64,000 nt of DNA from Candidatus Omnitrophota bacterium (GCA_023247795.1 JAHFFT010000008.1:1519-65518), one strand, 5' to 3'. Numbered from the stretch's first letter, positions 17,737 through 62,461 are shown. Notes: generated by a model not told the origin, from the sequence alone. Made by a program: numbers and translations.

Positions 17737-17822
17737 ACTTATCTCCTGACTATGATTGATGCTGAAAGATTGAAATATTCCGCATCAACTCTCTTCCTAG
17801 AATTGTGATATTGAAATGACGA

Positions 17823-20752: not shown

Positions 20753-20845
20753 ATCTTTATGATTTGTAATAGGTTTGATGTTTTTGGAAGTATCGACTTT
20801 AGCATAGCAATTGACTTTTGTCGAGGTATTTGTTATAGTTGCGGC

Positions 20846-29295: not shown

Positions 29296-29370
29296 TTTTC
29301 CAGTTGCAAGTTTCAGGTCTCAAGTCTCAAGTTACTTGTGGCTTGAGACCTGTCACTTGAGACTTTACTC
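29296..29370. repeat. Intergenic palindromic element, GTCTCAAG family, copy 2
   Basis: Perfect 11-bp inverted repeat caggtctcaag ... cttgagacctg with tandem ctcaagt units; overlaps the 3' end of the DUF4381 ORF. Confidence 0.6.
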
Positions 29371-30882: not shown

Positions 30883-31214
30883 AACAAACTTCCCACAGCC
30901 AACCTCGAATCCTGTAATAACTTATGATCATTCTTATCTAAAAACTGAAGCTTTTCCGAAAAATCAATCAAATATTCCGTCTCCGCTAATGACCCTAAAG
31001 CTATTGCCAAAAACTGTTTGAATTCTTTCCGACTCTTACGCGCATACCCCTCAACAATGTTTAAGGGAACTGAAAGCGAATATCTTCTCAGTTGAGAAGT
31101 AATTCCATACACCTCTTCTCTAGGAAACTTCCTTGTTATCAAATAAACCGTTCTTGCTAATTCATCTGCTTTCTGCCAAACAATCAATTTCTTATAACCT
31201 GCCTCTCCCATCAC
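30858..31214 (-). CDS. Four-helix-bundle protein (TIGR02436-like, 23S rRNA intervening-sequence-protein family)
   Basis: 118 aa; KLIVWQKADELARTVY ... NIVEGYARKSRKEFKQFLAIALGSLAETEY pattern. Confidence 0.6.
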   Translation of the reverse strand: MMGEAGYKKLIVWQKADELARTVYLITRKFPREEVYGITSQLRRYSLSVPLNIVEGYARKSRKEFKQFLAIALGSLAETEYLIDFSEKLQFLDKNDHKLLQDSRLAVGSLLWKFYKIF

Positions 31215-31275
31215 AAACCCCTTTCTTTTCTATTACTTTTTCTGGGGGACTTGTAACTGGGGACTTGTTGCTAAA

Positions 31276-32415: not shown

Positions 32416-32476
32416 AAGTTAACAATAAGAGGGACTGTCCCCTAAGTTGACAATAAGAGGGACTGTCCCCTACCTA
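32416..32476. repeat. Tandem ~30-bp direct repeat (aagttgacaataagagggactgtcccct x2) carrying degenerate copies of the locus palindrome, immediately after giant-1 TAG stop
   Basis: Directly visible; RC reads TAGGTAGGGGACAGTCCCTCTTATTGTCAACTTAGGGGACAGTCCCTCTTATTG. Confidence 0.75.
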
Positions 32477-41400: not shown

Positions 41401-41985
41401 ATAAACATCGGCGCTATCGGGCACGATCCAGACCTTATTAAAAGTGTTGATCGGAATATTGGTTGTTCCGTATTGCGCGAGGGCCCGCTCATAAACCTTT
41501 TTCCAAAAAATTTGGCCGAACTCATCTTCGGGATACAACAAAGAAGCGGTGATTTGTTTCAAAAGATAATCTTGCGCCAAAAGGTCGCGGCCCATGTCGG
41601 TCCGGCCGAATTCGTCCGGGACAACGCGCTCTTTCTCGTAGGGCGAAAGGTTCACCCACTGGTCTTCGGCGCGGGTGGTGAGTGAAGCTAAAAAATATTT
41701 GATCAATTGGGTCGAGGATTTTTCTTTCTCGTCCTTGTTCAATTTCTGATCACCGAAATCAATAATGAATTCAAATCGAAAAGGCTCTTGAGGATGTACG
41801 CGCATTCCCTTAATGACCGGTGGATGAAAAGCTGTACTTAACCGCACCAATTCCCCGGGAACGGGAAGATTTAACAGTGCGGCCGTTGACTGGGCATAGA
41901 CCGGCGGCGGCAGGATCAATAAAAGAATTAAGAGAGGGGACAGTCCCCTGTGCAAAACCTGTGTAAAACTAGCGTATTTTTTCAT
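32470..41985 (-). CDS. Giant secreted/surface protein 1 (~3,171 aa): N-terminal giant-family domain, two GHKL/Hsp90-like ATPase modules, beta-propeller-like repeats, HExxH motif, conserved C-terminal domain
   Basis: Uninterrupted 9.6-kb ORF. Listed ORF start 42108 is a TTG; ATG at 41983-41985 (MKKYASFTQVLHRGLSPLLILLLILPPPVYAQS) gives a classic signal peptide and is preceded by TTGTTA-N17-TATACT. GHKL N-box IIEAASNSIDALGG (~40360-40395) and G1 box VIDNGKGMG (~39850). Second GHKL-like ELPQNSKDGGA / DDGNGPVPG / GYFGTGKYTTFAG (~34400-34750). SxDGxY-type repeats ~36500-38500. TMVHELGHFFEW at ~33005-33040. Confidence 0.85.
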   Translation of the reverse strand: MKKYASFTQVLHRGLSPLLILLLILPPPVYAQSTAALLNLPVPGELVRLSTAFHPPVIKGMRVHPQEPFRFEFIIDFGDQKLNKDEKEKSSTQLIKYFLASLTTRAEDQWVNLSPYEKERVVPDEFGRTDMGRDLLAQDYLLKQITASLLYPEDEFGQIFWKKVYERALAQYGTTNIPINTFNKVWIVPDSADVYTHENTAYIVKSHLKVMLDADYLAADANRQKDQKGPDSTAAKDAEPLNELSNTVMREIVLPALEKEINEGSHFGQLRQIYDALILATWYKRALKSSLLGQKYVNQNKTNGVQVEDERVNQKIYERYIEAYRKGVYNLIREESDPVSKSAIPRKYFGGGTNAGVETERVFRQVSSVSAAALLSHGEVEIVDTLTQDIVGPASGQMDAAPASSMDKLMLSSTDEIKNSPTTKEYDDGKGFHGVSIWHFIRAQERMEKGSLKGDELKAVLKKLNIITDESEYNPRKRKNYYQQILQHLSLSGYDGESIDAINAGTYKPSDLLEKTVFKQGSNARKQGIIEAASNSIDALGGRLGQFGKGVKQIIRWLEATGEDRIDVHTLQKGGTPYQLTILRVPTGQWYIQIKAVSRNDFRAAAENNAYENGTVIRVKLKGKIPYEHKSLNSLTSIKEEIHDRFAYVKDIAIKTRLRGIEEVVNGAEHRRILMPAGQRAATIEDKQSTGKEINLIFDDREIKVIDNGKGMGASPVSRMMVPAGGEKRPAYVTEQNLEDELKELMVIHDTKKQKSEIAIARREEVITTIPVGEKINPDAIVPGKLVLEFGIMVEINQARSGIIFPSEHDPRQRWPIKLAVERMVEGLLANPELDADPVGLLKYINMMIIGLQALAGNNEDNQYIVRKITDAVKNRIAAVVADLQSQGYVFLPHDRQFAQVETGHPTIYLDKHLFDWNDQISLKALGAEVVDTAVFRLIRNIDGKDREIPLVAVDFKEDTINEFENFDINTFDFLKKHPLPRIKGDGYVAIPKKFVARFNALVERRKRQKLTMGEQIELYQQAQLIKLLTDETVVTSYEVETPQKTVELLERLTYRFARSTGGIDSEAINQFLTKDPPELIPSNQRVPEGARKRYMIDDKGQLIDINSGQVVKNREGYRFKSIIPLRNNFYLLEVLFIKEKKILFKILDSNYVRELGVRGQEVLISPDGRYAYVPETVISTQNLITMLDTETEKQVDDFAEVLKYEPDRRAHDVRMSKNGLFVMWLEETNGIRKFYSWDLQFHQNVVFEAVSYEYGEIEHMAKLKAADGKFYWMDLENGNVVTGRNVYTDPQQRFSVFKTDSGQLQIYIHAAHKLISTAATPELTWEHPFQNPYIIANANHITAVNFGSFNDADDQDKFCVIETLEGRRFFVDQDGEIMLDTTGQSMSSIFANRIELTELLLGRVYRGENKLFNFLYVLSSIHPKFPLLIEQQVEAQEATEMKTGEKVRFKGDIVYYREGVAFYTVANGKLLSYRDFLDDQVLDTPVEYDLVAMSSDGQYAVIREGQQLKVLDLPDGTTSAEFADANDYPVVSFDGKYFVLENPKTRNVIYVNPYLRFVDDGFITKIDQEAKPFTKEKPEGEPEVDRQKLEARISLFNAEGYQIVEVKGKYIKYRRTEAMGSVWGVLDGIRNLPNNLPMFHTVHPGDYDDGKGNQLKYLGTQEIYFSHSGRFSIHEGRDSQGRKAAFIFDHVMGSHQARGYMYYDELYVDHHADVVILKDQSTSEFFVMDLVSGNKIFKGTAENVLIDHTGNFAIVNLGKANCRIVHLGTGEIISVAEFDKDFLGNGSISIAEDGQRVYLFIAEYDSRNEYFYEFIKDPLTGKIGPEPRQAPIKLDGRNKFNKLAVINGGKDNLPRYWIEYENKNLTLVRREIALFPAEDEDDHYTLHYKDTDNIYSDTKFIITDQDDLITLGREGTVRQKKFIEEFGNNPQVVFESPSNWSNDLGSLKGNKVGFEYKGNRQIENIFSNAMTEARMDIKNGFVNEDNTFILFQDRDERYYLLDQDDHLYDITDEVESGFEVYQAYGHNFQFRRGENEFRYFYPDRYLEKVRKVRVSAQQLARQKRIRTFWEEQVLSKHDQWISEAQTAYEPFLSLFPREYRESPENKFSERFKDFYRRQERGIHQRFKSAVDSQASVVDTRGLPSEEFSRRMKRIVEVLNHADATNQTLIDRLIQQVKGIDNSLTRQDCYQRLFEGLFELAMNPNLQIDLTSIDEHAVEVMMLGWLPQTLREWQQMSMIYQLLAELRRLRGDRLEINTIVKMVEFLQEAGRAEDQAIEIVMGQLKLFLDPQISGEYLLKWYQSFSEVDSGKIARALKDERRLEDLGNAADYVVLLTNQAPPVRVKKRLDPLGEDVLKDDYGLPVEKITNWNLDLKQRPETEADMHTIDELVEQRDLIAAYPDDEWLKAEIDNYTQKQREAGGYAAELPQNSKDGGAKNMVVEFYKDEEANELIEEISDDGNGPVPGKMLALIIPKSTKEAFAQLGKISGYFGTGKYTTFAGVDRIEIIAKDRDGQAFMFVMVLDREAHQVRLTRVRRCDASQLKANFMVRRVKSLKKTIPQLDQMLAKRSWKMFAGMSQDESFQIFFKDDIHDANKLSPLTVKGKKILTETDFIAPHPRTKKMIKYEGKMRIYSTEDPGVPIQIVDKNGLRVHDLKMESYLLALIPELLLADDKSDEGEENKSRTGHFHRLRLVIQIPLTVDQNRDAFEEEDNDFKEVLQKYIALEFYKALAVERLNNVNYPVESFPEDWEASQNENYWNVVNYADHIDLTSEEGRTTTLTDLISRINRAHEKVDDKEEIPEHPVQHWELDSLKQMIDGVDAVDAGEKELKQRVLLSFFTQLEVFTKEGKEEKTSLYIRRLQTQEKINAERARREAEKRGVDYQGASEDPHAAQHQHMARILQAIKNLDLTQIEKKPETDNEKRLMVLVASMAQKVGFTDFRLAQENPYFSGLFVGTNTVYISANLADAIDSQSGISRGHLHQPTETMVHELGHFFEWMYSLSLSGTRMEQNQVFVVLKGMQTTHDTKGGKFSEGNQLLATVMLAKHEPIAKSFDNFFLSSDDKSRVELPTNPNITISPQAFGFWENLQSSNKAVQTGNPDTPKEVNPGSSSSTGGIDFNPQNVNLNVRGQGLDLQVSPQDLESIEIHGLTPIILSIRPVANLPQFLGLSR
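41932..41951. repeat. Locus palindrome gcACAGGGGACAGTCCCCT inside giant-1 signal-peptide coding region (part of 34-bp segment shared with giant-2 upstream region)
   Basis: aggggacagtcccct at 41935-41949; extended match gttttacacaggttttgcacaggggactgtcccc (minus strand) vs gtttttaacaggttttgcacaggggactgtcccc upstream of giant 2. Confidence 0.8.
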
Positions 41986-42001
41986 AGTAAATGATATAAA
42001 G

Positions 42002-42030
42002 AGTATAAAACATAATACTATAAATAACAA
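42002..42030 (-). promoter_or_regulatory. Putative sigma70-like promoter of giant gene 1 (TTGTTA-N17-TATACT)
   Basis: Minus-strand TTGTTA tttatagtattatgttt TATACT, 16 nt upstream of ATG 41985; same TATACT -10 as giant 2. Confidence 0.35.
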
Positions 42031-42127
42031 AACATTAGAGGAATAATGGTCCGCTAGATCAGAATGGACATTTCCTAAAAATTGTAAATTTGTAACTATT
42101 TTAATCAAAACGATTTACGCACTTATT

Positions 42128-42145
42128 AACAGGGGACTGTCCCCT
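42128..42145. repeat. Locus palindrome AACAGGGGACTGTCCCCT overlapping giant-2 TAG stop
   Basis: RC reads ...CAT CAA TAG GGGACAGTCCCCTGTTAATAAG; perfect 15-bp palindrome. Confidence 0.85.
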
Positions 42146-45100
42146 ATTGATGAAGGGCAACTTCTTCGGGTGTGACAGGTTGCGGTGAAATTCCTAAAAA
42201 TAGCGGGAGGTTGGTGATGGGGACGGTATGCGTAATGACCGGGGTAAAGCCTTCGATGGGGATCTGCGAAAGCCCTTCGGCACTGTCCGTGACTTGCAGA
42301 TCAATGCCTTCCCCTTCAACCTGCATTTGAATCAACGATGGGTCCAAATCAATCCCGCCCGGGATCTGAGCTTCGGGAGAATTTTGCCAGCCAGGATGAA
42401 GCATGACGCTCGGAATGATCTCTACAGAAGTGTTTAGGTTCATTGGTTCTGACTCAGTTTTTGACAGGAAAAAAGCATCATTTCTCAACATCTTATTATA
42501 CATCTTACCTGCACCAGCTTGAACTCTGGCATCTATTCCTCGGGCGTCCATCAAACCCATTAAAACCCTATGAAAAATCTTCTCCTCGCCCTCGTCTTTA
42601 AATTGCTCTCTGACCTGTTGCAACGTTAACTCTACATCAACTAACGAGTTCAGCAAGTTGACGAGAAAAGCATTGACCTCGATCGGTTCGGCCGCTTCCT
42701 CTTGTTGGATCACTACTGGTGCGGCCGCAACCCCCAAAAATTCCGGAGTCATGTCGGCCCTGGTAAGGGGCTTTTGTCCGTCGATCCTCAATTCCAAATC
42801 AGCTCGGTCGATCCGTTTAAACAATTCCGCGATGCTTTGACGCATCTCGGGAATGAGCTCACCAGATGTCATCTCAATGACCTGTAAATTCGGTAATGCT
42901 TCTAAAATACTGATCAACCGATCATTGAATTTCATAAATGGCAACCTCAGCGTTTTGATTCGTTTGATTTGTCTCAGGAATTCAATCCGCAAATCTTTTG
43001 GGTTGACCTGACTCAAATCCAAGGAAAACGTATCATCTGGTCCACGAATAAAATGATTAGAAACGTTATGAACTATACCAATATGCTTTAAGAAAGATAA
43101 TTGATGGTCTAAGGAGAACCCTGATCCAATTTCTCCAATCACCTGCTTAGATACATCCTCATACGTTATCGCAGCTTTATTTCCATTTTTGATCGTTAAT
43201 TCCTTTCCTCGCGGATGAATGGCAATAATGAGGTAGGCCACAAATCCAAAGTCCCAACCAACAGTCTGGTCTTCCGTCAGTATTAATTCTTTCAACCTTG
43301 GCCATTCGCACGTATGTATGACCAATCTCAAATAATTCCCAACCATTGTTGGCAACGCCACCGAAGCAAGATTCCTTAATTTATGCAAATCTTTTAAGTA
43401 CAAACTTTCGCCTGAAGGTTTACTTTTTGTAAGATCAAGCTTAATTACGGTGGTCCCATCTGTATCCTTGAACGTTGAAAGTGTCTCATCGGTCAAAGGC
43501 ATGTGACTGCGTTGCAAAATTTCTTTTGCCAATGCAATCTGTTCTGGAAGGCTCAATTCCTTCAGCTCCGGCAGTTCACTCGAAAATGGTTTGACCTCTG
43601 CTGACAACTCTTCCTCGCCAGTTTTCTTATACTCATCCGGCACATCGTCGTAAGTAACGGTAAACTTGTCATTAACAAAAACAACCATATTCCTGCCATT
43701 GGGATGTTGGGCCATAAAACGATAAAGATCATCTCGGCCGGACATCGAATCCTCTAAATGAATACCCAAATAGGTCAAATTTGGCATGCTGTTCAAAGAA
43801 TTGAGGTTGCCGTCCACAGCATCAAATTCTAAATTAAGATAAATGATATTTTCCATTGGCGGGATGGTTTTCAATGTTAGGGTGCCATTCCCTTTGAGTT
43901 CAAAATGACGAAGACTCACCAAATCTTCAAACCCAAGCTGACCGGTTGAAAAAATGCTGGCATTAACTTTCAGCGAATACAAATTGGGGAGTCCCTTTAA
44001 CTTGTCCATATTCGTTAGCGAATGCTTTATTGCTTGACCATTTTTATCATGCTGCAGATCTAAATCAATCCGCTTAGTTTGTTCAATTGCTGGCACATTG
44101 ATACTCATAAACTTTTCTTTTGAAAAATTTGCCCCCATAAAGTAACCGACTTTCGCGACTTGCCCATAAAGTGTATTTTTCCCGCTTGACGGAAAATTCG
44201 GCATTTGCCCGCCACGTGTATACATGAGTCCATTGAGAATCACGATCATATGCTCGCCGTTAGGATGCGTTTCCAATAATTGTTTTACTTGCTCGATCGT
44301 ACAGTACGCACTAGTAATTTTAACCACTTGCAATTTCTTTAAGTCATTCAATAGCTCAAGATCGATTTGCTCATCGCTTGTGAAAACAAGATGTCTTAAT
44401 TCTTGCAGTGGAGACAAGAATTCAAGGCCGCCAGCTTCAAGTCCATAAATGGTTAACTCCCTTAACTGTGGAACATGACGTAGTTCTTTTAAATTTTCTT
44501 CGTCCCATATCATAAACATTTTCTTTAAATCCGGAATTTGCGAAAGCGGCTGCAAACTTGGAACCTGACCGTCAAAATGAAGACCAATGGTTTGAAACGG
44601 TTGGCTCAATTCCATAAAACCCTTGATCATTTGATCGGGACCGAAAAAGGCCCTTACCGCGGCCGCTTGCTTTGTAAACGACTCCATTTGCGCGTTCATA
44701 TCTGCCAACCTCTGCAACGCACGAGCTTGTTCATCTTGCGGCGCTGGGCTCAATAGCGCGGGACTCAATTCTTGTTCCTCCCTCTTCATCGCATCAATCC
44801 GTTCGCGGACATCAGTGACCACTCCGCCCGAATCAAATGTTTTCAATTGGAAAACTTCTGGATAAGGATGGTCAACAAGCGCTTTGAGGGCATTGGTCAA
44901 TGTCAAAGTTTTGGTTGAAGGAATCTTTGAGAAATCCACAACAATGCTTCCTGCGACATGGGTCAACGTTCCCTTAACATCACCGCTGGGAATCGAATAA
45001 AGCCTCCCTAGATTTTCCACATAATGTTTTAGAGCGGACTGTAAATCAATAACAACCTGAATTTCTCTCTCAAAAAATTTTTCTATCTCGTCTACTCCCT

Positions 45101-48100
45101 TTAACACCCATTTCTTGCGTGGAGGCTGTAAAGTAAAATCCTTTCGAAGGGGATGAGCCCGGCATAAATGCAAAATTTGATGGGAAGGCACATTCGTATT
45201 TTGCAAATCAAGAATACGAATAACGTTACCATTAAGATGATACAGGCTTTGCAATTTGGGGGTGTTCAATTCGAGCTCAAAAACATCGACACCTTGCAAA
45301 CAGGGAAGTTCAGTGGCTTGCGGATCATCCACCGTCAAGATTTTCAATTGTTGGAATTCATTAAGGTCGCGCAAATGACCATAATCGACGATCAGCGAGG
45401 CATTGCGCAAGATCACCTGCTTTAAAAAACTCAAATGATTCAGCTTGCTCAAATCAGGAATGGTAGTCACATTCTTAAGGACAAGCGCCAGATACGGCAA
45501 TTCCTTTTTGCCGGATTTTTTTCCGGGCTGAATATGAACGTCCGCTTGATCAGGTCTTAAACCCAATTCTTTCAAAATTTCTTTAGCAGTGATCGACTGG
45601 AAAGCAATCACCTTATCAACAGCACTATCAACGATACCCTCTATGCCAAATTCCATTCCTGCGGCAGGGACTATTATTAAGTTGTCCTGATTAACATGCC
45701 ATAACAAAAGATCGCTAGTCGCAAAATCTCTAGAATTATCGACAGTATTCATCCGCGAAAGATCAAGATACCGCAAATGACGCGCACCCAATAAAGGCCG
45801 GAAGTCACCGTCTTTACTAAACGTAGAAGTCCCCATATCAATACGTTTCAAAAAAGTCAGTCTTTCAAAAGGCAGTTCACTGAATTTTTTATAATTTTCC
45901 GGAGTGATCTTAAATTCAGCCGCGATATACGGACGATTGTCGTCATCAAAATGGATGGCTGTGGGAGTCACGAGACCGGAATCGAAAAGATAATCCGCCT
46001 GATCATCGATCGTTTCCAGCCAGTTTGTTGGTTGGGTCTCTTCCAACCCAGCCGCACTGACAGTTGACGGCTGAGACTTCTCTTCAACTTTGGCCGGAGA
46101 TTTTTGTCCCGACAGTTGATTCTGATTTGCTTTAAGGAAAGACTCGTAACTTCCGTAAAAATATTTGAAACCACTGTGGTCTGTCTCATCCCTCAGATTG
46201 ATATTTAAATTCGGACGCTGTTGATAAAACTCATTGATTTGCTCTATGGTCAGGCTCCCATCCCAGGGTAATGTCAATGTTCGCAAATTGGCACATCTCA
46301 AAATAGGTGATAAATCTCGGATCCCGGATTTCGCTAAATCCAGGCTAATGATGGCATCGAAATCCTCTAAAAAACTAAAATCACCGGTCAGGACCGGCGC
46401 AGAAAATGTTAAAAAGCCGACATTTTTATTGGTCGCTAACGCTCGTAACGACTGATAATCCTTAGCGTCGACAGAAGAAAATTCAACAATGACCTGATCC
46501 AATCTCAAGTCATCCGACAAGACGCCCAAATCCACATTCGCTGATCCGTCAGTTGTGACAGGAGGCTTCTTAATTTTTAATATCACATATCCACCAAGCC
46601 CTGATTCCGCGGTGATGCTAAAATTTTGGTCAAACACTAACGAGCTTCCCTCTGTCAACTTTTGCCTAATATTTTGCATCGCCTCTTGTCTTACCTCTTC
46701 AACGAACGATGGATCTAGATTCGCGAGTTTCCATTCTCGACCATCCGGCATCTTGACTTTTAGCATCATACGATTAGGATGATGGGCCAGAAACCGCCGG
46801 ATGTCCTCCTCAGTCACGGAGCCCGGTAATAAATTGGAAAGATCAACAGCGGTCAAATTATAAGCACCATAAAGAAAATCGAGATCATTGAGCGCGGAGG
46901 CGCTCAAATCCACCTTGGTCAATGCCGGACTATTTATCAACGCCCTTCTCTTGATTTTCCCCAAATCTCTAGCACTCATTCCGCTCAAATCCAAAAGTAA
47001 TTCTTTGTTTCCCTCCCCTACGTCCTCCCTAAAACGAATCCTATACGAATCAAATCCCCCAATCGCAGCTGCTAATAAACCAATGAGATAATATTTTTGC
47101 GGATTATTATCATTCACGGCCTGTTCGGCCGATTCCGGATTAAGGTTCGAAGCCTCTTCAGGTTTTATCCGATCACCATACTCGGCCATGAATCGATCAT
47201 AACTTTCCATTGTAAATTCGTCTCCTGATGGAAGAAAAAATGTTAATTGAAGATTTGGCCGCTGTTGATAAAATTGAGCAATGTCTTCTAAAGATAAACC
47301 CTGCCCCAAATAAACACTCAAAGATTTAAGATATTTCAACCGCAGGCAAGGCGATAAGTCATTGGCGGCTTTATGCAACACCAAATCATAAAGGTTGGGG
47401 AAGAATTCAACGATCTGGTTCAAATCCAATGGATTAGGATTGGATGCGTCATCAATCTGAATATCTCTAATATTTCTATTTAATCCTAACGAAGATAACG
47501 CTCTCTTCCCTCTTTCTGTGGACGCATCAAAATTGATTTTCACTTCATCTAACCTTAAGACATCTTGCAAAACCGACAAACTTGCTCTTAACGATACGCC
47601 AGTCAATGAACCCGTCAAATCTTTATTAGATGGAGGGGATTTCAACACTAAAACCACTGAACCCTCATCGGTTTCATCAACCGAAAAATCAGTGCCTTCT
47701 TGCATTCCTTGTCCTTTTAACTTATCAACGATGTCTTTTTTAGCTTCTTTGACAGCTTCCGTTTTATAGTCTTCCTCTAAAGATCCAAAATTCAATTCAC
47801 TCCCATCCGGCAAAAATATCTGCAGAAACTGTCGATTGGGATGGTGGGCCAGGAAATATTTAATATTTTTAAGCGAAGCTCGCGAAGGTAAGGAACCTTT
47901 AAAACTAATGACCCGTAGGTTATGAGCACTGTAAAACGTGGCAAGTACTGTAGGATCCACATTTGCCGTTGCTAGCCCAACCCACTCCAAGTCTGGAAAA
48001 TCGACAAACGCATTACTTTCAATTTGACGCAGAACCGCGACCGGTTGATCGAACAAATCTACTGCCAAACTTTGACTCCTATCTATTCTAGGGAGTGGCG

Positions 48101-51100
48101 CAACATTGCCTTTATCAAAACCCGGAATCACGCTTGCCAAATAATCCGCCAACCGCTGTTTTTGCGAAGAAATCTCTTCAGCCGGCGAGCTATCTAATGC
48201 CTTTCCCAATGGAAGCTCATCCTGCGTCCCGGCCAGCTCGCTTAACTGTCCCTCATTTTTTGCAATGAAATCTTGATAATCTTTATAATCGACCAGCCCT
48301 GAGTTCCAGCTGGAAGGAAGCAGACACAACTTCATATCCGGCCGCTGCCGATAAAAATCATCCATGCCCTGCAAACTTAAAGCCTCACCACGATATAGCA
48401 ATAACTGTCGAAGATATTTCAACTGCAAGCAAGGGGACAGGTCATTTGCGGTTTTCGGCAAACCCAAAACATAAAGGTTGGGAAAATCTTCAACGATTTG
48501 CTGCAAATCCAATGAATTAGGATTTGCCTTTGAATCAAACTGGACATTTCTAATGTTCTTATTTTTACCTATTTGTCGTAAGGCTAACTTCCCTCTTTCT
48601 GAAGAAGCGTCAAAATTGATTTTAATTTTATCTAGCGGAATAATGTCATTCAACACCGACAAATCTGCTGCAGACGGAATCCTTTTCAACACTAAGACCA
48701 CTGAACCCTCGGTTTCATGAACTGAAAAATCAGCGAGTTCGACCATTCCTTGATTCCTCAGCCTGGCAACGATGTTTCTCTCAGCTTCTTTACAGACGCC
48801 TGCTTTACTTTTTTGGTCTAAAGATTTAAAATCCAATTCACTCTCATCCGGCATAACAACCTTGAGAAACCAGCGGTTAGGATGGCGGGCGAGAAATTTC
48901 TTGATATCCTCCTCACCTATTGAACTAGACGTTTTTTTCAATCCTTTAAAACTGATCTCCTTCAAGTTGCGGGCGCTGTAAAGAAAATTCAAATCCATGG
49001 GTTCTGCCTCGGATAAATCCACGGCCTCCAAAGCTGGATAATCAGAAAACGCGCGATCTTCTATTTGATGCAAATCGTAATTGGAAAGCCCGTGCAAATC
49101 CAGAACCAAATATGACCCATTCCACAAGGCAACCCGATGAGGATCAAACCCTATAATCCTTCCTGCCAAATATACGGCCAGCCGCTCTCTTTGCAAGAAA
49201 TTATTCGTGCTTTCTTCTTCTGACGGCTGCGCTCTCTTGGCCGACGTTTCAGTTTGCTGAGCGGCCTGATTCTTACTGGATGTGGCCACGGGCCACCAAA
49301 TTTTTCTACCATCAGATAGCTCGATTTCTAATTTTTCCCGATTTTTATGCCTCATCAACAAATTCACGAGGAATTCATTCGGCATCTCTTGCCTCAATTT
49401 CAACCTTGTCAAATTCTCCAAACTCAACAAAGGATCGAGCCGGTCAGCTTGTTCAACTTTAATTTTGATATCGACCTCTGTAAGCAAAGAAAGTTTGGCA
49501 AACTCATTTTGAGCGAATGTAGCGAATGTATCATAATTCTCTTCCGTGACATCCACCTGCAAAGAAAAATAAGGCTCACCAGTACTGATATGTTTAAGAC
49601 TGGGCACAAAAAGCGCAAATTCCGAACCATGCTCCTTACTGAAATCTGACAAAATATTGAATTGGGCAATGCCTTCCGGGCCCGTAGCCGATATTTTTTC
49701 CTCCGCCGGCATTTGCACTTCAACTTGCGCCTCTACCACCTGCCCCTCCCGCTCCAAGTCCGCTAATGTCAATTGCTTGTCGTCCGGCATCAATATTCGT
49801 AAATTCTTTCGGTTGGAGTGAACGCGTAAAAAGGCCTTGATCTGATCCACGGAAACGGCTCCGGGGAGCAAATTCTTCAAAGACAATAATTTTAGGTTCT
49901 TAAAATTTAATAAACCATCGAGATATTCGACATCCGTATTATCCAATTCAACGATCCCGACATTATGAAAAGAGGTCGAACGTATTGCCTGGCTAGCCTT
50001 CGATGACGGATGAAAGATATCTCCAACCCCCTTCAAGTGCATCAATGACAAGACAATCCCCGCCCCTTTGGGAAAAGTATCATCTTGAAAGTCGACAACC
50101 CGATCCGAACCAAACCCGTTTAGAATACCGCTAAACAACTCAAACAACTGATTTTTCTGCTCCTCGACAGATAATTCCGGTTTCTGGTTTGGCGCAGAAA
50201 CTTGCGTCGTTACCTCCTCCTGTGCCAACGCCTTCAAACACTCCCGATAATCGGCAAAGACCCTGCCGTCGGGCATGATGATGCGCAGACTGGCAGCGAT
50301 AGACGGGGGTAAAAGCCTAATGATCCTGGTGATCTCCTGATTGGTCAAAGGTTTTATTTTGGGAAGTGTCATATCCACAAAACCATCTTTATCGGAACGA
50401 ACGTTAATTCCCCTTGCACTTGGCGTGTTTCCTTCGTCTATGATACTAATCAATAACAAATCGAGTTCTGCCGCATCCAACCTCATTCCCTTTGCGATCT
50501 CTTGACTGTGCTGCTTTGTATACTTAGCCATGCTTTCTTCGTCAGCAATCTTGATTTCTTGATTAGGAAAGCTAATATGTAAAATAAATTTGTCTACAAA
50601 ACTAAACATTAAATTAAATTGCGATCTACCAATATCGGGATAACGTGTCCATAACTGAAGCACCTGCTTTGCGCTGACCTGTGAATCGATAAAAAGCTCC
50701 TGAATGGGACACCCAAATAAGGGGGCGATATTCGTTACCCCCGTACCGCTGAGTGAAATCGTCGCCTGATCCAAATCCACCCTTTCAAGAAAAGAAATAT
50801 CCGTCAACTGCGGATCATTGCTTAAGAGCAATGTCTTGTTTCCCCTATGCACATTCCATTTTGAAATTTCAGAAAGGTCCAGCCGACTAGGATATTCAAC
50901 ATTAAGAATTCCGAAGTAACCCAATCGATAAATCGCTGATAAATCCGGTAGACGGCCTTCGGTCAATTCGACATTGATTTGTATCATTTCTTTATTCACT
51001 TGCAGACGCACGGAGCCGTCAGGTAACCCTGGGATTTTAGCAAGTTCTCGCTGAGCAATTTTCAACTGATGATTAACCGCCTCCTCGATCTGCTCATGAA

Positions 51101-54100
51101 CCCACTCTTGGGACGGATATCTCTGGTCAGAGTGCAATTTCAATCCTAAAAATGTGTATGTAAAACTTCCCGGCAAATCAATTCGCAGTCTTTCATGATT
51201 GTTATGATTGATCAGAAATTTGGCGACGGCCTTTTCATCAATCGGATTGTTGGAAATCAATGTGAGCTTGGTTAGATTATCGAGTTTTACCAGCGCATAA
51301 ACAGCATCCAGGTCGTCAAAGGCGATCTCGACTTCTTTAAGCAATGTGAGTTTGGCAAAATCAAGTTGACGGAAGATATCGATATTCTTACTCGTGACTT
51401 TGACCCTTAAGCGTAGATATCCATCCTCAGGAGAAGTTGCGATAAGGTCCGGCGTAAAATATTCAAAATCTTTGCGAAATTTCTCTCGAAATTCCATCAG
51501 AATTTCAAATTGCTTGATTATCGGCAATTCTGCTCCTGCAACCTCTGATATTGGTGGTTCCACGGGAGCGACCGGTTCTTCCGTCTCCGATCTCTGCTCC
51601 GCAACTGGCCCCGTTGCCGCCCCTTGTTCTATCGCCTTCAAACACTCCCGATAATCTGTAAAGACCGTGCCATCGGGCATGGTGATGCGCAGACTGGGAG
51701 CATCGGTCGGGTTTAAACCATTGATAAATCCTTTGATCTCCTGCTCAGCTAAAGGAGATCCTGATTGAAAGGCCACATCAACATAACCTTCACTCGGAGA
51801 AGCAAAAATTCTAACATTTTCTACGTTTTTCATACCGCCACCATCTTTTTTCCCCTTAAAATACCACTTCACTGCCTGAGTATCCTGCTGAAATTCTTCT
51901 TCGATCTCTTTCTTGTGTTCTTCATAATAGGTGGACATTTCTTCCTTCATAATGTGCCTACTCTTGCTAGTGCCGATTATTGCTTCGGTAATAACTATAA
52001 TTGGCCTATGGAATGCCGGATAACGGGTCCATAACTGCCAGACCTGTTTTACCGGCACATCTGAATTGATTCTAAGGGCTTTTATCGGATGTCCAAATAA
52101 TGGGGTGATATTTGTAACCCCCGTTCCCAAAATATCCACGCTTGCATCGTTAAGATTTAAATTTTCTAAAATGGAAATATCATTAAAATCAGGATCTTTC
52201 CCAAAATATAACCTGACCCCACCTTTATGCGCATTCAGCTTTGCAAGCTCAGTAAGGTCCAATTTGCTGGGATAACGAATATCGATCGCGCTGACATAAC
52301 TTAATCGATAGAGTGGCGTCAAATCCGGCAAACTGCCCTTTTCTAAATCAACTTGAATCTTTATGCCTTTCAGATCATGTTCAACCTTAATCGCGCCGCG
52401 AGGAAATCCAGATATTTTATCAAGCTCTTCTTGAGCAATTTTGAATTGTTGGTCTATGGCTTTAACGATCTCATCATCAACCCACGTTGGTAATACGTGT
52501 TGAAATGGACCATCTAATTTACTCAATCCCTCATGTTTAATTTCTTGCCCCCCATTCAATACGATTCCCAATGCCTCATGATTGTTATGGTTAACAAGCA
52601 GATTAACGACAGCCTTCTCAGCCGACTCATCAAGTGGATTCGCTGTCCTTAATCCAACTTTGGTTAAATTCTCCAATTTTAAAAATCTATCCACCACATC
52701 TTGAAAATTGTCGCAGCCAATCTTGACATGGGTCAACAATGTCAATTTTTCGAATTCCAAGTCTCGGAAAAGAGCTAAATTTTGTGGGGTCACTGTTGTG
52801 GCCAAATAAATCCCTTCCTCGTTGCTGACCCTAGCAACCATAGCATCCGGAAAGTCATTCTTGTGTTTCGTAATAAAGGACTGAAGATATGCCAACTGCC
52901 CTTCTCTCGTTGAAAAATCCCATGTGACTAGCGGGCTCACCGACTTCTTGGCTGACTCTTCCTTAACAGTCCCTAGCCCAGCTTCTCGTTCAATCGCCTT
53001 CAAACACTCCCGATAATCCGTAAACTCCCTGAGCTCGGTTATGGTCTCGAACTCGAGACGCAGGCTCGCCGCCACTGCCGGCCGCAGCCCCTTGATAAAA
53101 TTTTTAATGTTTGGATCATCTACGGGTAAAGAGCCAAAATATACGTCAACAAAAGCCTCATTTTCATTTAGCGAAACAGCGGTCAATGCTATGCCCCCGA
53201 GATGATTTTGTTCCAAAGCCATGTTCACTTCCAACCTATCATCCTCCAACTGTTGAGAAATCTTGTCCCGATAAGTATTAAGAAAACTAGAAAATTCACT
53301 CGAGCCGAAAGATAAATTCAATACTTGATTTAAAACCCGCATGGCCTGATCAGGGTGACGTATGTAGAATTGATAAACCTGTTTTTCCGAAATACCCGAC
53401 ACTTGATTCAGGTCAAGTACGGCTACCCAAGCCTTGCCAAACAAAGGAGAGATATCGGTCACTCCAGTACCGCTCAAATTGATACTGCTAAAGTCTTTTA
53501 AATCAAATTCGCTTAAAAAAGAAATATCCTGTAAATTTTTATCATAATCAAAATCCAACTGCATGGATTTTTTTGACCCGCTCAACTTTTGAAAATTGGC
53601 AAGATCCGTAAACCGGCTGATCTCGCTAAAAACTATGGTCTTGACATAATTCACCCGACAAATCGCGCTGAGATCCGGTAAAGGACCGGTAAAAGAATTG
53701 ACTGTTATGGCAATGCTGTTGCCATTATCGGTTAGTCTGGGAACGATTGTCCCGGCCGGCAGCTCCGTCATCCTGCTGATTATTTTTTTTACCTTTTCAA
53801 AATCCTCATTGACCGCGTCTTTAATCATGTCGTGAAACTCTTCATAATGAAGCAGTTCGGAAAAAATCAATTCCTCTCCAGAAGGTAAAATAATCTTGAG
53901 ATCTTCGTGATTCAAATGCCTGAATAAAAACCTTATCAGACCGCGCTTAATCCCTGGATCTAATTGAACAATAGGCTTAAATGTAAACTCCGTTAAATTT
54001 TCCAGTTTGAATAATTCAAAAAGTCCAACAAGTCCCTCACCCTCAAGTTCGACCTCTGTCACCATGGTGAGCTTTGCTAGATCTAATTTATTAAATGCTT

Positions 54101-57100
54101 TAAGGTGGTTATCTGTCGTTACTTTGATTTTCAAAAAAATAGAGTATCCAACGGGTTGGAAAACACGACCGTATTCAAAAATATCAAATATACTCTCACC
54201 AGATTTATCTTTATGCTGTTCATCAAAACGTTCTAAGAGATCGAGCTGTTGATTGAGGTCCAATTCCCCTTCAACGCTTTTCTGCTCAACACTCGTTTCC
54301 GCCGCCGTCACCGCTGGCGTTGGAATGGCCTCCTCTTCTCTAACCTCGACTGGGGCTTGCGCTTGTTTCTTTTCTTCTGACTCGCGGGCGGTTTCTTTAA
54401 AAGCAGCGGCGGTATACGCCGACGCCACTTGTTTTTGCAATTCCACAATATCAACCGCCTCATACGTTTTGTCGGGATTAGCGTCGCTCAAATTCTTTTC
54501 GATTTCTTCTTTGCTCTGTGCCGCCCCTTCCACAAACTCAATGCTGAATCCAAACTCCTGCAAGAGATAGATAAATTCCTTGCATATCGGACTGTTTTTG
54601 TATTTTTCAATTTCACCAAAAATCACGATTGTCTTTTTGATTTCCTGCGATTGCGGGGCCGATTTGATAAAGCATTGCGCGAAAGGAAAACCTTGTAAGA
54701 GCCGCTCAAGACTGGGCCTCCCATCCGCGCCGAACTCATCTGATTGCTGTGGGCGTCGATCAACATAGGAACTCTCTAAAATGGCCTGCAGCTCGCGGAC
54801 AATGTTATGGGACAACTGCTGCATTTTGGGATCACGCTGACTCGATTCCTGCTGCCCCCTCCGGTATGAAACCTTTTTGGTCACGATCACGGGGGATTTG
54901 GGTTTGACAATTTGGGGGTTAGCTTTTACTGGATCTGGATTAAATTGATAGACGTTGTGATAAGGAGTTTGAGGGGGTTTTATTTTTTCTGACTCAGCAT
55001 CCTCTCCATTATTTCCAAACCCTTTCTTAAATCGAAGACCCGCTGGCAAATTATGCAAAAACTCCAAATCTTCCTCAGTCAAAGGCTCTCTATTCTCGAC
55101 CTTCTTTTCCAATTTTATTAATTTCCTTCTTCTTCGCTGTCTTTCATTAGCTTTCTCCCGAAAATCCGCCTTCTTTTCGTCTGGAGTCATTTGCTTAAGC
55201 TCTGTCCTTCGCTCCTTTCTTAACTGCTTTCGAATTTCCTTCACAGTCTGCGGATCTTGAGCAAGTGCAAATCTTACCATCGCCAATCTCATTGACAATG
55301 CCTTTACCCAACTTTGAACAAATGCCTTTTCTACATTTTCCGTGACCCTGTCCTCATTAACCCTGCAAAACTTATTGATGAGCGGCACCAAGGATCGATA
55401 AGCCAATTGATCTTTTAAACGATGCTCCATAATCATAAGGTCTTTCTTAGTAACTCTTGTGTCTCTTGACATGAGATAGGCCCACATCTCTTCAAGCTGA
55501 TCAATGAGATACTCCATATCAGCCTTTCTAACCCATTCCTCCTCTTGTCTTATCTCAGTTTTCATCTGCTCACGCTTTTCTGGCGTTAAATCAGGGTCCC
55601 TGGTTATCGGTGTTTCCTCTTCGGTAAAGGTTGGATTTTCATGACCGCTTTCCAGACTGACTTCCAAATTCGCCATGGCGCGATCTCTTTCCTGTTGTTC
55701 CCTTTCAGGAGAGATAGGCAGTTTCGGCGGATCAGGGACCCGGTCCCCTTCAATCATCAACATCGTTTCCTGAATTTCTCTGATCAGATTTTCCGCCCGG
55801 TACGTCTGGAATTGGATTTCCTCTTCATCCAATTCACCCTCAAATGAGCCGCGCGGAAATGTCAGTTTTAATTCTGTCATGGTCTCAAAATGGTCGATCG
55901 CGAGACGAATGGGGTTGGATTCTTCGCCATAGATATGGGCTCCACCATCTTTGAATTCTAAATCTTTGGCAAAAATCAGGAACAGATCTTTAACGCTCAT
56001 AGGTTCACCGTGCTCATCATCCAAACCCTCCAGCAATCCTCGGGAAAAGACAAGCAGACAGAGTTGAAAAATCCGGCGATGATTAAGTGAATCATGAGGC
56101 CGAGTCATCCACTCCTTCAATTGCTTGGTATTACGATTGTAAACCATTGCCGCGAATTCTTTTTCAGCAGCCGATGGCTTTCCCAAATTCGTCCTTGGCA
56201 AATAATGACGCAACGCTTCTTCATAACGCACATCTTCGATATTTTTCAATAAAGGAACGACTTCCAGGCCAGCCTGGTACGGAGCCCACGGCTGGACATC
56301 GCGGTGTAGCAATCCTCTCATCGTTTCATACATAAATTTCTCAGTGAAATAAGGATCGCCAAACATATTGGCATACATGGCAATCTGAGAAGAAACTTCC
56401 CCATCTTCATCCTCCGAGACCAAAAATTCCCCGCCGGGGTGATCGGGTTTATTCGCGATGATCGCGAATTTCGGTTGTCCCAAAGCCGTAGGAATGAAAA
56501 ATCCAGCCAATCTTTCCAAAAATTCAGTATCATTGTATTCCTTCTCTTGGAATCGCGTTCGCTCTCGTTTAGGGGCGAGCGGAATTTTAAGAAATTTGGC
56601 GATATAGAGCGGACCGTAGGTATGGGCAATGAGACTTTCCGTTAGCGAATTACTTTGCCGGGCGAATTCAGCACTGCCCAAATTTTTATACTGCTCCAAA
56701 AGACTAGCCATGATGTAATCCAGTTCCCGAAACGTCGGGCGGTGCTTGACATCGGCGATGTTCGCCCGCAGCCAGACATACGTTTGTATGACATAATTGC
56801 AGGCCTCAAGCATGACCGGTCGATCTTTAGTCTCGCTGATTGAGTAATTGACCCAGCGTTCGGCCAATACCTTAAGTTCTTTTTGCGTGTAATCATAGAC
56901 CCGTCGATAAACTATGCGGTTCAATAATGCCGTTGAGAGCTGTTGGCGGCCGCTGAAATCCATGGAATTGATCGTGGCGAATACTAAAAAACCGGCGCCG
57001 GCTTCCCTGGTCACCTCATTGAGTTTTCCTTCCAAAAAATCCGTGGGCAATAAATTCATCTCGCGGATGATCACCACCGCCCCCTCTTGCCGGGCGCGCT

Positions 57101-60100
57101 CAATGACCTTGACCAAATAATCCGCGTTATCCGGCTGGGCGTTGATCACGTAAAACCGCTTTTGATTGATATCAGCGAGATTGATTGGGGTATTCGAATA
57201 TTGCACTTCCTGATATCCCTTCAACCTTAAGGCCTTGATCAGAGCAACGTCTTTAGCCCGGCCCGGCGCTCCGTCGGTAATCATCCCCATCTTGCCTTGA
57301 AGAACTTTTTGATTATTACTGACCGCATCGATGCGAACTTCCCGCAAATCAAGCATCGTCATCTCATCATGAATCATCAACGCGGTTGAGTCGGTCATGA
57401 TCAAGGGCTTGTCGCTATCATCGATCTTTAAAACCTCTCCGGTCTGGCGCATGACTTTCTCGATCATGGCCCCTTCTTGTTTTGTCAACATCTCAACCCC
57501 GTACTTTTGCGCCAAGATGTGATGCAGTGCCTCTCGCTCTTCCCTATTAAAACTTCCACCATAAATCTGCCAGGCCAGATCAATGACCTCATTTTCCGTC
57601 CACCCATTGGGATAAAGAAAATTGACCCGTTGGGCCAGGTCCTGGACTTCCCGCAAAGCGAAACCCAAATTAGGGTTCATTCGGTTGAACAAAAAATGCA
57701 GGTCTAAAATGAGTGTTTCCAATTGATCTTTCCAAAAAGTTTTTTCCGGAAGATACTCTTGTTCCCGCATAATTCTCTCAATATCAGAACGCTTAAACGG
57801 TTTAAAAAAAATCGTGACCATGTACTCATCAATCAACTCCTGAAGTTTTCTTCCGACGAGCGAATCCTGGTTTCCGGTAAAGATGATTTTTTTATCCTTC
57901 AGATCTTGGTACCGGCCGTCAAGATACATATGCGGATTTTTACTGAAAAAACCTCTCAGAAAATTCCAAAAATACGGTTCAGTCAAATTCGCTTCATCAA
58001 CGATCAGAATCCCTTTTTCTGATTTGGCCCACTTAGCAATGGCCTCGTCCACAATCGGATTCGATTCGTTATTCTTTTCGTCCTGCTGATAAACGCGGCG
58101 GCTGATCACGTGTTCTTCTTTGGCATCATTCCCAACCGTTAAACGAAATATTTCATTCGGCTGATAATTCTTTGCCGCCAAAATCTGGGCCAGATGACTC
58201 TTACCCGATGCTGGAGGACCTTGAAACATGACCGCGTTGTTGATGAATAAAGCAGCGCCGGCCATGCGCTCCCGGTATTCCCAGGTGTCTTCCCCCGCGT
58301 TGGTTTCGAAATCAATAGAAGGGACGACGGTTGCGCCAATGACTTCCTGCTCCCATTCATCTGTAGCCGCGTAAAGCGCGAATTTCTTTCGATAAAAATC
58401 AGCGTGCTCAGTATCGTTCCTATCATCAAAATGCTTGATCAAAGCGGTCCGGATCATTTTATGGACGGCCGCGCCAGTCGCCATTTGTGAATCGGTCCCT
58501 AACATTTTTTTAAATCCTCGCAAAAACTGCTCTATCTCGTCTGGATTTTGCGCGTCAAATTTCGGTGCCCTAAAATCGGTCCCAAGTTTTGCCTGGATTT
58601 GATTCAACAAATCGAGACTCAAGGTATCCACGAATTCCCAAAAATACCGGTCCCAGCGGACCGGATAAACGGTCTTTTGCAAAATCCGTTTGAGCCGTTT
58701 GCCGTGGAGGCTCTTTTCATTTCGCTTTTTGTCTCCATCCAAAGTGAACTCCCGCTCCTCAACGTCAAAAATCAAGCGGACCATGACCCGCATGTAAGAA
58801 ACAAGCTCTTGGTCCTCGGCAAATTTGGAAATGACCACTTGTTCAAAGGCTTCAAGCCAGGTATAACCTAGACCGACATATTTAAAAAGCAAACGAAGAC
58901 GGTAAAGATTGAAATTCACTTCTTCCCGGTTGATCCCATCCAGCTGGTTGAACATATCACGCAGTTTGATAATTTTCTGATAATCGCCTCGATTAAACGA
59001 TGCTTTTATTTCTTCGTCATCCTGCAGCATCATCTCCATCAGAGCGTCGTTGGGATTCATACTGACCTGATTGACCGCGGTTGAAGATTCCTGGGCCAGC
59101 GGCTTTTGCAGCACGATCAATCGACCAGGCAAATCCACCCTCATGCCATTGACCATGATATATGGATCTTCCTGCAAGGCTGATTCCAATCCCTGACAAA
59201 GCACTTTATTGTGCTCGGTACCGACCAAGACCACTGTTTTCCCTTGCAACAATTTTTCATAAATTTCTTGAGAGCTTGACGTGTACTTGCGTTTTCCCTC
59301 GGTCGAAGAAAAATCTGGAAACTCAAAGAGTTGATTAACGGTTGTCTCCGCCGTGACCGGATAAACCACAAATTCATCAGGATCATAGGAGGACTCAATC
59401 GTACGCAGCGCGAACTCCAGATCTTTTGATTCCACCAAAATCGATTTCTTTTCTTTCACGTCTTCCCATTCGCTCAATTTACGTTCATTGCTTTGGGTCT
59501 TAAGGGCCTTGGAACGAAGCTTGAGATACGCCTTCGGCACCGGCACCCAGGGCGCTACTTCGATGATTATATTCCCATCAGTGTGCATGATCGCGTGCCA
59601 GACCCAATCGTCGAGATGGCTGGTCACGGCCAAACGCACCCGCTGATTTTTTAACTGTTTCGGAGTCTTCAACAGATCCAAAATTCCGGCTTGACGGGTC
59701 AGTTGATTCTCTTCTCTGACGTTATCAATGTGATTGCGTTTAAAAAGAAAATCCTGCGTTTGCTTGTTGATGATCCAGACCTGATCTCCTTCGTCTGGCA
59801 TTTCTTTCCAGGCGACAAGCTTTTTTTGACTGACACCTTTACTAAAATCAACATCCTCACGGTAAATCTTTACCCCATCTGGGATCACAATCGTTTCCAT
59901 GTTGAATTCCTGCGCCGGATTTTCAATGAATTGCCGGATCAAGTCCCGGAACGAAGGATCTTTAAAATCACCACCCCGCAAAACAATCGCGGTGTCCTTC
60001 TTCGCGTTATTGAGCTGCCCTGGGATGACTAGAATTTCGCCGTTGGGACCAATATCATAAGTCCCGAGCAAAAGTTCACGGGCAAAAGGGGTTTCATTCA

Positions 60101-62326: not shown

Positions 62327-62354
62327 AGTATACACTATTCTTTGCAATTATCAA
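62327..62354 (-). promoter_or_regulatory. Putative sigma70-like promoter of giant gene 2 (TTGATA-N16-TATACT)
   Basis: Minus strand: ...GGGGACTGTCCCCCCC TATG TTGATA attgcaaagaatagtg TATACT ttactttaaaccatagataactcttt ATG. Confidence 0.35.
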
Positions 62355-62357
62355 CAT

Positions 62358-62391
62358 AGGGGGGGACAGTCCCCTGTGCAAAACCTGTTAA
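62358..62391. repeat. Locus palindrome plus 34-bp segment near-identical to the giant-1 5' coding region, upstream of giant-2 promoter
   Basis: ggggggacagtcccctgtgcaaaacctgttaaaaac, 32/34 identical to 41935-41970. In the giant-2 reading frame it translates *QVLHRGLPPPMLIIAKNSVYFTLNHR*, a stop-interrupted relic of giant 1's FTQVLHRGLSPLL. Confidence 0.75.
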
Positions 62392-62443: not shown

Positions 62444-62461
62444 AACAGGGGACTGTCCCCT
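62444..62461. repeat. Locus palindrome AACAGGGGACTGTCCCCT overlapping TAG stop of the upstream partial gene
   Basis: Plus-strand ataaacaggggactgtcccctaaaag; stop codon cta at 62460-62462. Confidence 0.85.

Follow-up and report, generated by a model that had tools for sequence, protein, structure and literature searches.

A giant Omnitrophota protein that joins a midasin-like AAA+ core to an array of leucine-rich repeat domains within a frame suggestive of export

The window analysed here, a stretch of 64,000 nucleotides (nt) from Candidatus Omnitrophota bacterium (GCA_023247795.1 JAHFFT010000008.1:1519-65518), carries on its minus strand a giant open reading frame (ORF), g2, that runs without interruption over 42144-62300 and encodes a protein of 6,718 amino acids (aa), identical to one already in NCBI (P0001, on a 65.9-kb contig). 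The middle of g2 joins a core of concatenated AAA+ units, closer in sequence profile to those of midasin than to those of any other solved structure, to an array of small leucine-rich repeat (LRR) domains, and its two ends recur in other giants of the phylum. Our preferred explanation, which we hold to be about evenly balanced between right and wrong, is that g2 is an exported Omnitrophota giant in which this common frame encloses a dynein/midasin-type AAA+ array and an LRR array that remodel bound targets. The original prediction had treated 42400-58300 as the unit; that interval lies inside g2 and misses the first 1,360 aa, which hold a signal peptide, a conserved N-domain and three degenerate AAA units. 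The analysis rests throughout on sequence comparison and two AlphaFold models.

How many AAA+ units does the protein contain? Two had been predicted, and g2 holds more. Its alignment with nine homologues (27-46% identity) reveals five AAA_5-like units within a core of about 1,500 aa (aa 570-2100) that is both conserved and collinear. AAA1 (aa 1341-1510; 57771-58280) has the Walker A motif GPPASGKS (aa 1361, nt 58220), a Walker B motif IVDEAN (within ILIVDEANL, aa 1431), sensor-1 TGN and an invariant GR, and is followed by a helical lid (aa 1511-1660; 57321-57770) with an invariant arginine in SLRDIQ. Its residues GKS, DE, TGN, GR and SLRD are unchanged in 9/9 homologues, and such invariance across homologues of 27-46% identity argues for selection on ATPase function; by these sequence features AAA1 is likely the catalytic site. 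The original prediction had allowed that the arginine and sensor residues might be missing, and in AAA1 the Walker A, Walker B, sensor-1 and arginine residues are all intact. AAA2 (aa 1661-1825; 56826-57320) has the Walker A motif GAPGRAKD (aa 1677), in which the lysine is invariant and followed by aspartate, together with conserved FATINS and NR motifs; in its Walker B the aspartate is replaced by arginine and the glutamate is invariant. The two further predicted sequences, VVIIREMNLLPTDF (aa 1742) and FATINSMDFSGRQQLSTALLNRI (aa 1774), are also present, and the model places a helical lid after the unit (aa 1826-1960; 56421-56825). AAA2 is atypical and probably regulatory.

The remaining units, d1, d2 and d3, have no P-loop. 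Unit d1 (aa 570-715; 60156-60593) lacks a Walker A motif, retains a Walker-B-like strand, ILIDYN, and matches Mdn1 residues 913-989 with 25 bits; d2 (aa 716-825; 59826-60155) matches Mdn1 residues 181-246 and has an alpha/beta fold in the model; d3 spans aa 951-1085 (59046-59450). Comparison of the unit sub-alignments with hhalign gave 95.5% between AAA1 and AAA2, 93% between d3 and AAA1 (E 3e-7), 80% between d1 and AAA1, and a weak 25-38% for d2. Between d2 and d3, the secondary structure of the model alone points to a possible sixth alpha/beta unit, 'x' (aa 826-950; 59451-59825). A helical insert of 255 aa, visible in the alignment and the model, separates d3 from AAA1 (aa 1086-1340; 58281-59045), and a homologue search with aa 1101-1333 returned no matches. 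Ahead of d1 lies a linker domain (aa 361-569; 60594-61220) common only to a paralogue, P0002. Pfam AAA_5 (PF07728) detects AAA1 at aa 1357-1480 (36.8 bits against a cut-off of 22, E 4.8e-9), and this was the only family above threshold when the whole of g2 was scanned with Pfam, NCBIfam and PADLOC; the Pfam search originally proposed thus succeeds for AAA1, whereas AAA2 and d1-d3 go undetected by Pfam, and AAA2 and the LRRs call for profile-level methods. Under relaxed settings, too, Pfam matched neither the linker nor the post-AAA domain, the small conserved domain or the C-terminal tail.

The midasin-type reading of this core is supported by several comparisons. In a profile search of the PDB with the whole core, Schizosaccharomyces pombe midasin was the sole strong match (E 1.2e-27), with separate stretches covering d1, d2, AAA1 and AAA2; the next matches (Cdc48, Lon, RuvBL and CbbQ) had E>0.004 and covered the P-loop only, and no dynein sequence appeared at E<=1. 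All the unit profiles match the AAA domains of midasin better (up to 36.7 bits, for AAA2) than they match the MoxR protein of the same genome (at most 4.5 bits), so that of the predicted MoxR/midasin type the midasin half holds and the MoxR half, taken strictly, does not. Structure prediction brings dynein in as well. From 13 sequences, AlphaFold2 produced a model of aa 690-1889 (pLDDT 77, pTM 0.70) that retrieved dynein motor domains first in Foldseek (E 1e-24, TM-score 0.45 on the query, about 1,100-1,400 aligned columns), and it aligned with the rings of Rea1 and dynein over 650-810 residues, the Rea1 superposition covering 654 residues at 4.1 A. The modules are accordingly modelled in an arrangement like that of the dynein and midasin rings, and we predict that they pack in this way. 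The coiled-coil stalk and microtubule-binding domain that dynein carries between AAA4 and AAA5 were not recognised in g2, no dedicated test for them having been made; the model shows only the 255-aa helical insert between d3 and AAA1.

Like midasin (Rea1/Mdn1), g2 is a giant single polypeptide with several concatenated AAA_5-type modules of which only some would be catalytic, an acidic region after the ring and a substrate-binding region, in g2 a putative one, at the far end. Unlike midasin, it is bacterial and has a signal peptide, three of its five detectable units lack a P-loop, about 18 LRR domains stand in the position of the MIDAS/VWA domain, and evidence of a ribosome link is absent. 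Of the six concatenated modules that characterise midasin, five are supported in g2 and a sixth by predicted secondary structure only. MoxR-family proteins (RavA, CbbQ, NorQ and the MoxR of Bat operons) have a single AAA module and form homohexamers with VWA partners, whereas the modules of g2 are concatenated, and g2 shows neither an AAA_3 match nor a VWA domain. Judged by sequence, g2 is an AAA_5 protein of the MoxR/dynein-midasin clade that falls outside both MoxR and midasin proper. Dynein and midasin are described as eukaryotic proteins whose six-fold tandem form arose early in eukaryotes from a MoxR-like ancestor (PMC3495828); within the literature that could be searched, neither concatenated AAA_5 cores in bacteria nor an Omnitrophota protein resembling midasin had been reported.

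The core has relatives in several bacterial phyla. An exhaustive profile search with aa 740-1830 against 1.84 billion representative proteins yielded 2,410 clusters when the limit was set at E<=1e-3, of which 868 passed E<=1e-30, and the best 150 core matches have a median length of 2,362 aa. A genome scan found the core in Omnitrophota (including a single-cell genome of O. fodinae), in three metagenome-assembled genomes (MAGs) labelled Elusimicrobiota, in FCPU426, in one unclassified MAG and in one gammaproteobacterial MAG. Among 143 new core representatives, the N-domain motif of g2 occurs in 4 and a hydrophobic N-terminus in 27; as far as sequences tell, the ATPase core is a module independent of the export frame. 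Four representatives scanned with Pfam all had AAA_5, two of the four a transglutaminase-like core and one LRR_4. Certain distant relatives (P0121-P0123 and P0125) combine the same five-unit core with N-terminal leucine-rich regions and, by eye, a transglutaminase-like cysteine motif; precomputed Pfam LRR matches exist for P0122 and P0123. Closer to g2, the MAG nzgw298 holds a 96%-identical orthologue (locus L007) and, on another contig, P0002 (40% identity overall, 44-47% within the core), so at least two paralogues coexist in a near-identical relative.

What points to export of g2 is the pair of conserved ends. The N-terminus reads as a Sec-type signal peptide (aa 1-37; 62190-62300), with a positive start, KKSHRGIMR (four positive charges), a hydrophobic core at aa 13-31 and then TYA|K; it is the only hydrophobic segment in g2, and there are no internal transmembrane (TM) segments. 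It is followed by a conserved N-domain of about 320 aa with the motif WVNLSPYE (aa 38-360; 61221-62189), which has no Pfam family and no relative of solved structure. At the other end, a conserved C-terminal region and tail (aa 6511-6718; 42147-42770) carries GGIDL...GFTPVI...NLPLFLG. We define the frame by these three features, signal peptide, N-domain and GGIDL...GFxPVI...LG tail, all of which g2 has. A homologue search returned 420 proteins, and those with a source name are labelled Candidatus Omnitrophica or Omnitrophota. Among the 120 relatives listed, each at least 2,751 aa long and most alike only in the N-domain (50-57% identity), the WVNLSP motif is present in every one and the C-terminal tail in 114, 51-109 residues from the end. 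Across this family a (V/T)YA|(Q/K) site is conserved and is followed by a mature start LNLPxPG. The middles of the listed relatives carry unrelated Pfam domains, among them glycolytic enzymes, ABC1 kinases, M48 peptidases, methyltransferases, receiver domains, WD40 repeats and AAA_5. A 1,215-aa protein in another locus (L003, 14258-17905) also has the N-domain (50% identity over 331 aa), so the frame is not confined to proteins of more than 2,700 aa. That hundreds of Omnitrophota giants place the same signal peptide, N-domain and C-terminal tail around wholly different middles suggests that these tiny host-dependent bacteria may send out or deliver large machines by one and the same route.

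Several points weigh against the preferred explanation. The signal peptide was called by eye, without a predictor, and the scarcity of hydrophobic N-termini among core relatives suggests that the core normally works in the cytoplasm. Export also creates an ATP-supply problem, since the signal peptide and common termini point out of the cytoplasm, and there is no ATP in the periplasm or outside the cell. The ring geometry comes from one AlphaFold model of 13 sequences with d1 outside the modelled segment, the hhalign comparison for aa 826-950 was not significant, and neither a MIDAS/VWA domain nor another known substrate-gripping element was found in g2 by Pfam scans, relaxed ones included. The homologue loci, finally, have housekeeping surroundings without conserved neighbours and give no functional clue. 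Some of these points feed the main rival explanation, which we consider unlikely: a cytoplasmic, membrane-tethered chaperone or scaffold with an uncleaved N-terminal anchor, engaged in MoxR-like assembly or quality control of the cell's own complexes, with the LRRs as client adaptors. It would meet the need for ATP, it suits the cytoplasm-type enzymes (glycolytic enzymes, kinases, methyltransferases) carried by members of the frame family, and a hydrophobic N-terminus is missing from most of the core relatives that lie outside the frame; a preprint, moreover, predicts 46% of Omnitrophota proteins of at least 10 thousand aa (kaa) to be TM-only (10.64898/2026.06.07.730766). However, four positive charges before the hydrophobic core together with the conserved YA site and LNLPxPG start are arranged as in a Sec signal that is cleaved and leaves the body outside, and g2 has no internal TM segments that could return the body to the inside.

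Between the AAA+ core and the LRRs lie three regions. The first is a conserved post-AAA domain (aa 1961-2150; 55851-56420) with an HExxH motif in homologues (HEASHGLFTR) that has decayed to YETMRGLLHR in g2. It is followed by a charged, probably extended region (aa 2151-2500; 54801-55850), acidic at first (39 D/E in 150 aa, aa 2151-2300) and then basic (21 K/R in 50 aa), and by a small family-conserved domain without a Pfam match (aa 2501-2650; 54351-54800). The HExxH motif bears on an altogether different function, that of a conflict or immunity sensor comparable to NLR/STAND proteins or to MoxR-vWA-TGL systems, in which the LRRs would sense an invader, the AAA part would act as a switch and a peptidase as effector. 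We think this quite improbable. Distant core relatives do join the core to a transglutaminase-like peptidase and LRRs, close relatives retain the HExxH motif, and MoxR-vWA-TGL operons have been proposed to be degradation systems (PMC3495828). In g2 itself, by contrast, the HExxH motif is decayed, the signal peptide and the Omnitrophota export frame are present, and the gene lies in housekeeping surroundings with no defence-island context. PADLOC gave no model match to g2, only a Walker-A-level match to IetA (E 0.0024), on which account a defence-system NTPase was rejected as a candidate.

The LRR array of g2 extends over about 10.7-11.6 kb. Between aa 2652 and 6222 (43635-54347) lie 18 mini-LRR domains of about 150-170 aa, the units ending in a helical cap motif phi-x-x-F-phi-x-x-H-P-N-x-x-x-L-x-phi; a hidden Markov model (HMM) built from 17 units recovers all 18, one of them outside the training set (iE 8e-9). 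The 18-unit profile matches the solved LRRs of CtRoco (E 4e-18), internalin A (E 3e-13) and LGR4 (E 5e-9), and the alignment follows the LxxLxLxxNxIxDIxPL register of internalin A and CtRoco, which bears out the predicted internalin-like character. Internalin and Roco LRRs differ in that the units of g2 have only about 3-4 repeats each and their own helical HPN cap. Taken singly, the units do not reach Pfam gathering scores (LRR_4 in 4/18, best E 0.017; LRR_14 at 6e-4), which is why a plain Pfam scan shows no LRR. Further degenerate LRR-like units, below the HMM threshold, follow at aa 6223-6510 (42771-43634), recognised by eye and by a tile match of 4436-4586 to 6165-6314.

Two classes of super-repeat, as originally described, organise this array, with tile BLASTP matches at E 1e-10 to 1e-57. 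Class A occurs three times over aa 2640-4024 (50229-54383), each copy being about 455-468 aa long and ending in DYRECLKA (aa 3095, 3549 and 4017; spacing 454 and 468 aa). Class B, which carries HPNR, also has three copies, of about 345-355 aa, over aa 4345-5400 (46101-49268); the predicted count of three agrees, and the spacing between the HPNR motifs (aa 4473, 4820 and 5174) is 347 and 354 aa rather than about 370. All quoted motifs were located on the minus strand, NHNNHE only twice, and the predicted 23-mer lies at 50230, 51634 and 52996, within 2 nt of the places given for it.

The repeats are old. The original prediction had them at 70-75% identity in tandem at the DNA level and raised the prospect of phase or size variation by recombination, as well as of an assembly collapse. 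Codon-aware alignments between super-repeat copies instead give 32-54% identity in amino acids and 44-63% in nucleotides, with 70-82% reached only in islands of 90-190 nt; third codon positions are 34-57% identical between copies against a background of 27% for unrelated in-frame sequence, which is near saturation. Tandem Repeats Finder reported no long-period array, and the longest exact direct repeat in g2 is 26 nt. Recent tandem expansion was rejected on these figures. Because the copies are so diverged and exact repeats so short, the duplications are old and would be a poor substrate for slippage or homologous recombination, so the proposed phase or size variation finds no footing here. 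One exception in scale is the DYRECLKA codons, identical in the three class A copies down to synonymous sites over 24 nt (50230-50253, 51634-51657 and 52996-53019; 26 nt between two copies) within repeats that are otherwise only 49-56% identical; this synonymous island suggests local gene conversion or a nucleotide-level constraint. Neither the 24-mer nor the class A module had a relative in the metagenome contigs searched for copy-number variation.

The same figures speak against two further explanations. That the repeat region is an assembly artefact, expanded or collapsed, we regard as extremely unlikely: the window does come from a MAG, and the contig of the nzgw298 orthologue (JAHFFS010000068.1, 7.5 kb), in a low-coverage MAG whose assembly breaks at this point, stops near aa 2250, immediately ahead of the LRR array. 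Yet no stop codon interrupts the frame over 20 kb, each repeat copy differs from the others, and a longest exact repeat of 26 nt is shorter than the k-mers usual in assembly, so nothing here would lead a short-read assembler to merge or multiply repeats. A surface adhesin with an LRR stalk that varies in length by repeat recombination, and with a minor or vestigial AAA part, has little going for it in our estimation. It would account for a long LRR array behind a signal peptide and for the widely differing number of LRR units among homologues, 18 in g2 against 1-7 in relatives by the same HMM, and giant Omnitrophota ORFs have been proposed to be adhesins (PMC10066038). Yet the divergence of the copies, with third positions near saturation and no tandem array, speaks against such recombination, and the invariance of the AAA1 catalytic residues speaks against a vestigial ATPase. 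The difference in unit number indicates that the array expanded in the lineage of g2.

We return to the exported remodeller. Its middle would be a single-chain AAA+ array of five detectable units, possibly six, with AAA1 competent, AAA2 atypical and three or four degenerate units in a structural role, followed by a decayed zincin-like domain, a charged spacer and about 18 internalin-type mini-LRR domains. We propose that the LRR array, which grew by old internal duplications and does not vary rapidly, holds one target or several, whether proteins or surfaces, and that AAA1, by turning over ATP, would move the ring and linker so as to pull on or remodel whatever is bound, by analogy with midasin. 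The conserved termini probably serve export together with anchoring or delivery. The likeliest place of action would be the contact zone with a host or prey cell, or the interior of such a cell, where ATP is available. This placement, the simplest answer to the problem of ATP supply, is speculation; it would be in line with the host-dependent lifestyle proposed for the phylum (PMC10066038) and with the cytosol-type enzymes in sister giants.

How does g2 compare with giants already described? Giant Omnitrophota ORFs, in the portions of the three reports available (West-Roberts 2023, 10.1101/2023.11.21.568195; Seymour 2023, PMC10066038; Nielsen and Lui 2026, 10.64898/2026.06.07.730766), resemble it in phylum, great length, a signal peptide, old diverged internal repeats and multidomain make-up. 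Those portions cover ORFs of more than 20 kb or proteins of at least 10 kaa, sorted into adhesins, cell-wall degraders, dockerin/Archaeovorin, multi-enzyme and tandem-repeat classes, and one supplementary legend lists AAA_5 among the domains; they describe neither the frame of N-domain and C-terminal tail, nor a midasin-like core, nor the capped mini-LRR unit. The dockerin/Archaeovorin class was rejected for g2, which has no dockerin, TSP3, C39 or SecA Pfam domains, only one hydrophobic segment, and 6.7 rather than more than 10 kaa. MARTX toxins have conserved terminal regions around a variable set of cytosol-active modules. The layout of the g2 frame may be seen as analogous to theirs; no sequence or structural similarity between the two turned up, no dedicated comparison having been made, and g2 differs in having no type I secretion signal or cysteine protease domain.

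Directly downstream of g2 on the same strand lies a second giant gene, g1 (32470-42108, 3,171-3,212 aa), with the same signal peptide, N-domain and C-terminal tail around an unrelated middle: the two proteins are alike only terminally, with 51% identity across 362 N-terminal aa and 35% across 118 C-terminal aa. No Pfam match was obtained for g1; by eye, its middle contains two GHKL/HATPase-like motifs and long beta-rich stretches, with an HELGH zincin motif near the C-terminus. Upstream of g2, an ORF on the same strand (62460-64000) runs off the end of the window; the visible 505 aa have no Pfam match, and the ORF ends in the same TAG-palindrome as g1 and g2. G+C content is 41-44% over the LRR array (window 42000-56000) against 46-50% in most flanking genes, and g1 has a low-G+C block of its own at 36-38 kb (40%).

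The borders of both giant genes are marked by a palindrome, GGGGAC(N)GTCCCC, with 6 copies in the window against 0.08 expected, all at the borders of g1 and g2 (32430-32470, 41936-41948, 42132-42144, 62362-62374 and 62448-62460). In the form TAGGGGACAGTCCCC the palindrome overlaps three stop codons, those of g1, of g2 and of the ORF that lies upstream of g2; the copy at the end of g2, GGGGACAGTCCCC (42132-42144, minus strand), looks like a terminator, and 2-3 tandem 28-nt copies of the element follow g1. The inverse form lies inside a common 27-mer, ACAGGTTTTGCACAGGGGACTGTCCCC, found upstream of the promoter-like site of g2, where the palindrome is GGGGACTGTCCCC (62362-62374, minus strand), and at the 5' end of g1, within its first 20 codons. 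The promoter-like site itself, TTGATA-16-TATACT (62327-62354, minus strand), is a consensus match 27 nt upstream of the g2 ATG. The same palindrome pair with the same 86-nt spacing (616-628 and 702-714) stands upstream of the 96%-identical orthologue in nzgw298, and was not found in the other 19 loci. The GGGGACNGTCCCC border elements could be terminators plus a common leader or operator, or else cassette borders.

After g1, on the same strand and not directly beside g2, comes a complete Bat operon (23580-32277) of MoxR/AAA_3 (31276-32277), DUF58, an unknown protein, BatA, BatB, TPR, BatD and TPR-SH3. This adjacency is not kept in six homologue loci (in L006 the operon is about 8 kb away), and the giant gene is placed differently in the window, L006 and L003, so the closeness of g2 to MoxR and VWA genes is probably incidental; a functional tie between g2 and the Bat/MoxR operon is unsupported. 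A common gene backbone of BatD, TPR, LpxB, GFO, an MsbA-like ABC protein, S2, Ts, PyrH and RRF can be followed in the window (15887-23000), in L006 (1-9829) and in L003 (9955-14077), with the AAA-LRR giant gene at a different position in each, which suggests gene relocation or independent paralogues.

A broader proposal, tentative and on the doubtful side, is that g2 and its at least 868 relatives form an undescribed bacterial family of single-chain dynein/midasin-type AAA+ rings, possibly a sister or source lineage of midasin and dynein, that was captured in Omnitrophota into an export frame carrying cytosol-type machines to or into host or prey cells. Such export raises the question of where an ATPase, or for that matter a glycolytic enzyme, would obtain its substrates. 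Here is a bacterial protein with at least five concatenated modules, more midasin- than MoxR-like, and with hundreds of core relatives in several bacterial phyla. If the proposal is true, the concatenation of MoxR-clade modules into one polypeptide would not be a eukaryotic invention; and because the bacterial core is concatenated, midasin-like and found in several phyla, the origin of the dynein and midasin motors could be tested directly through unit phylogeny and structure.

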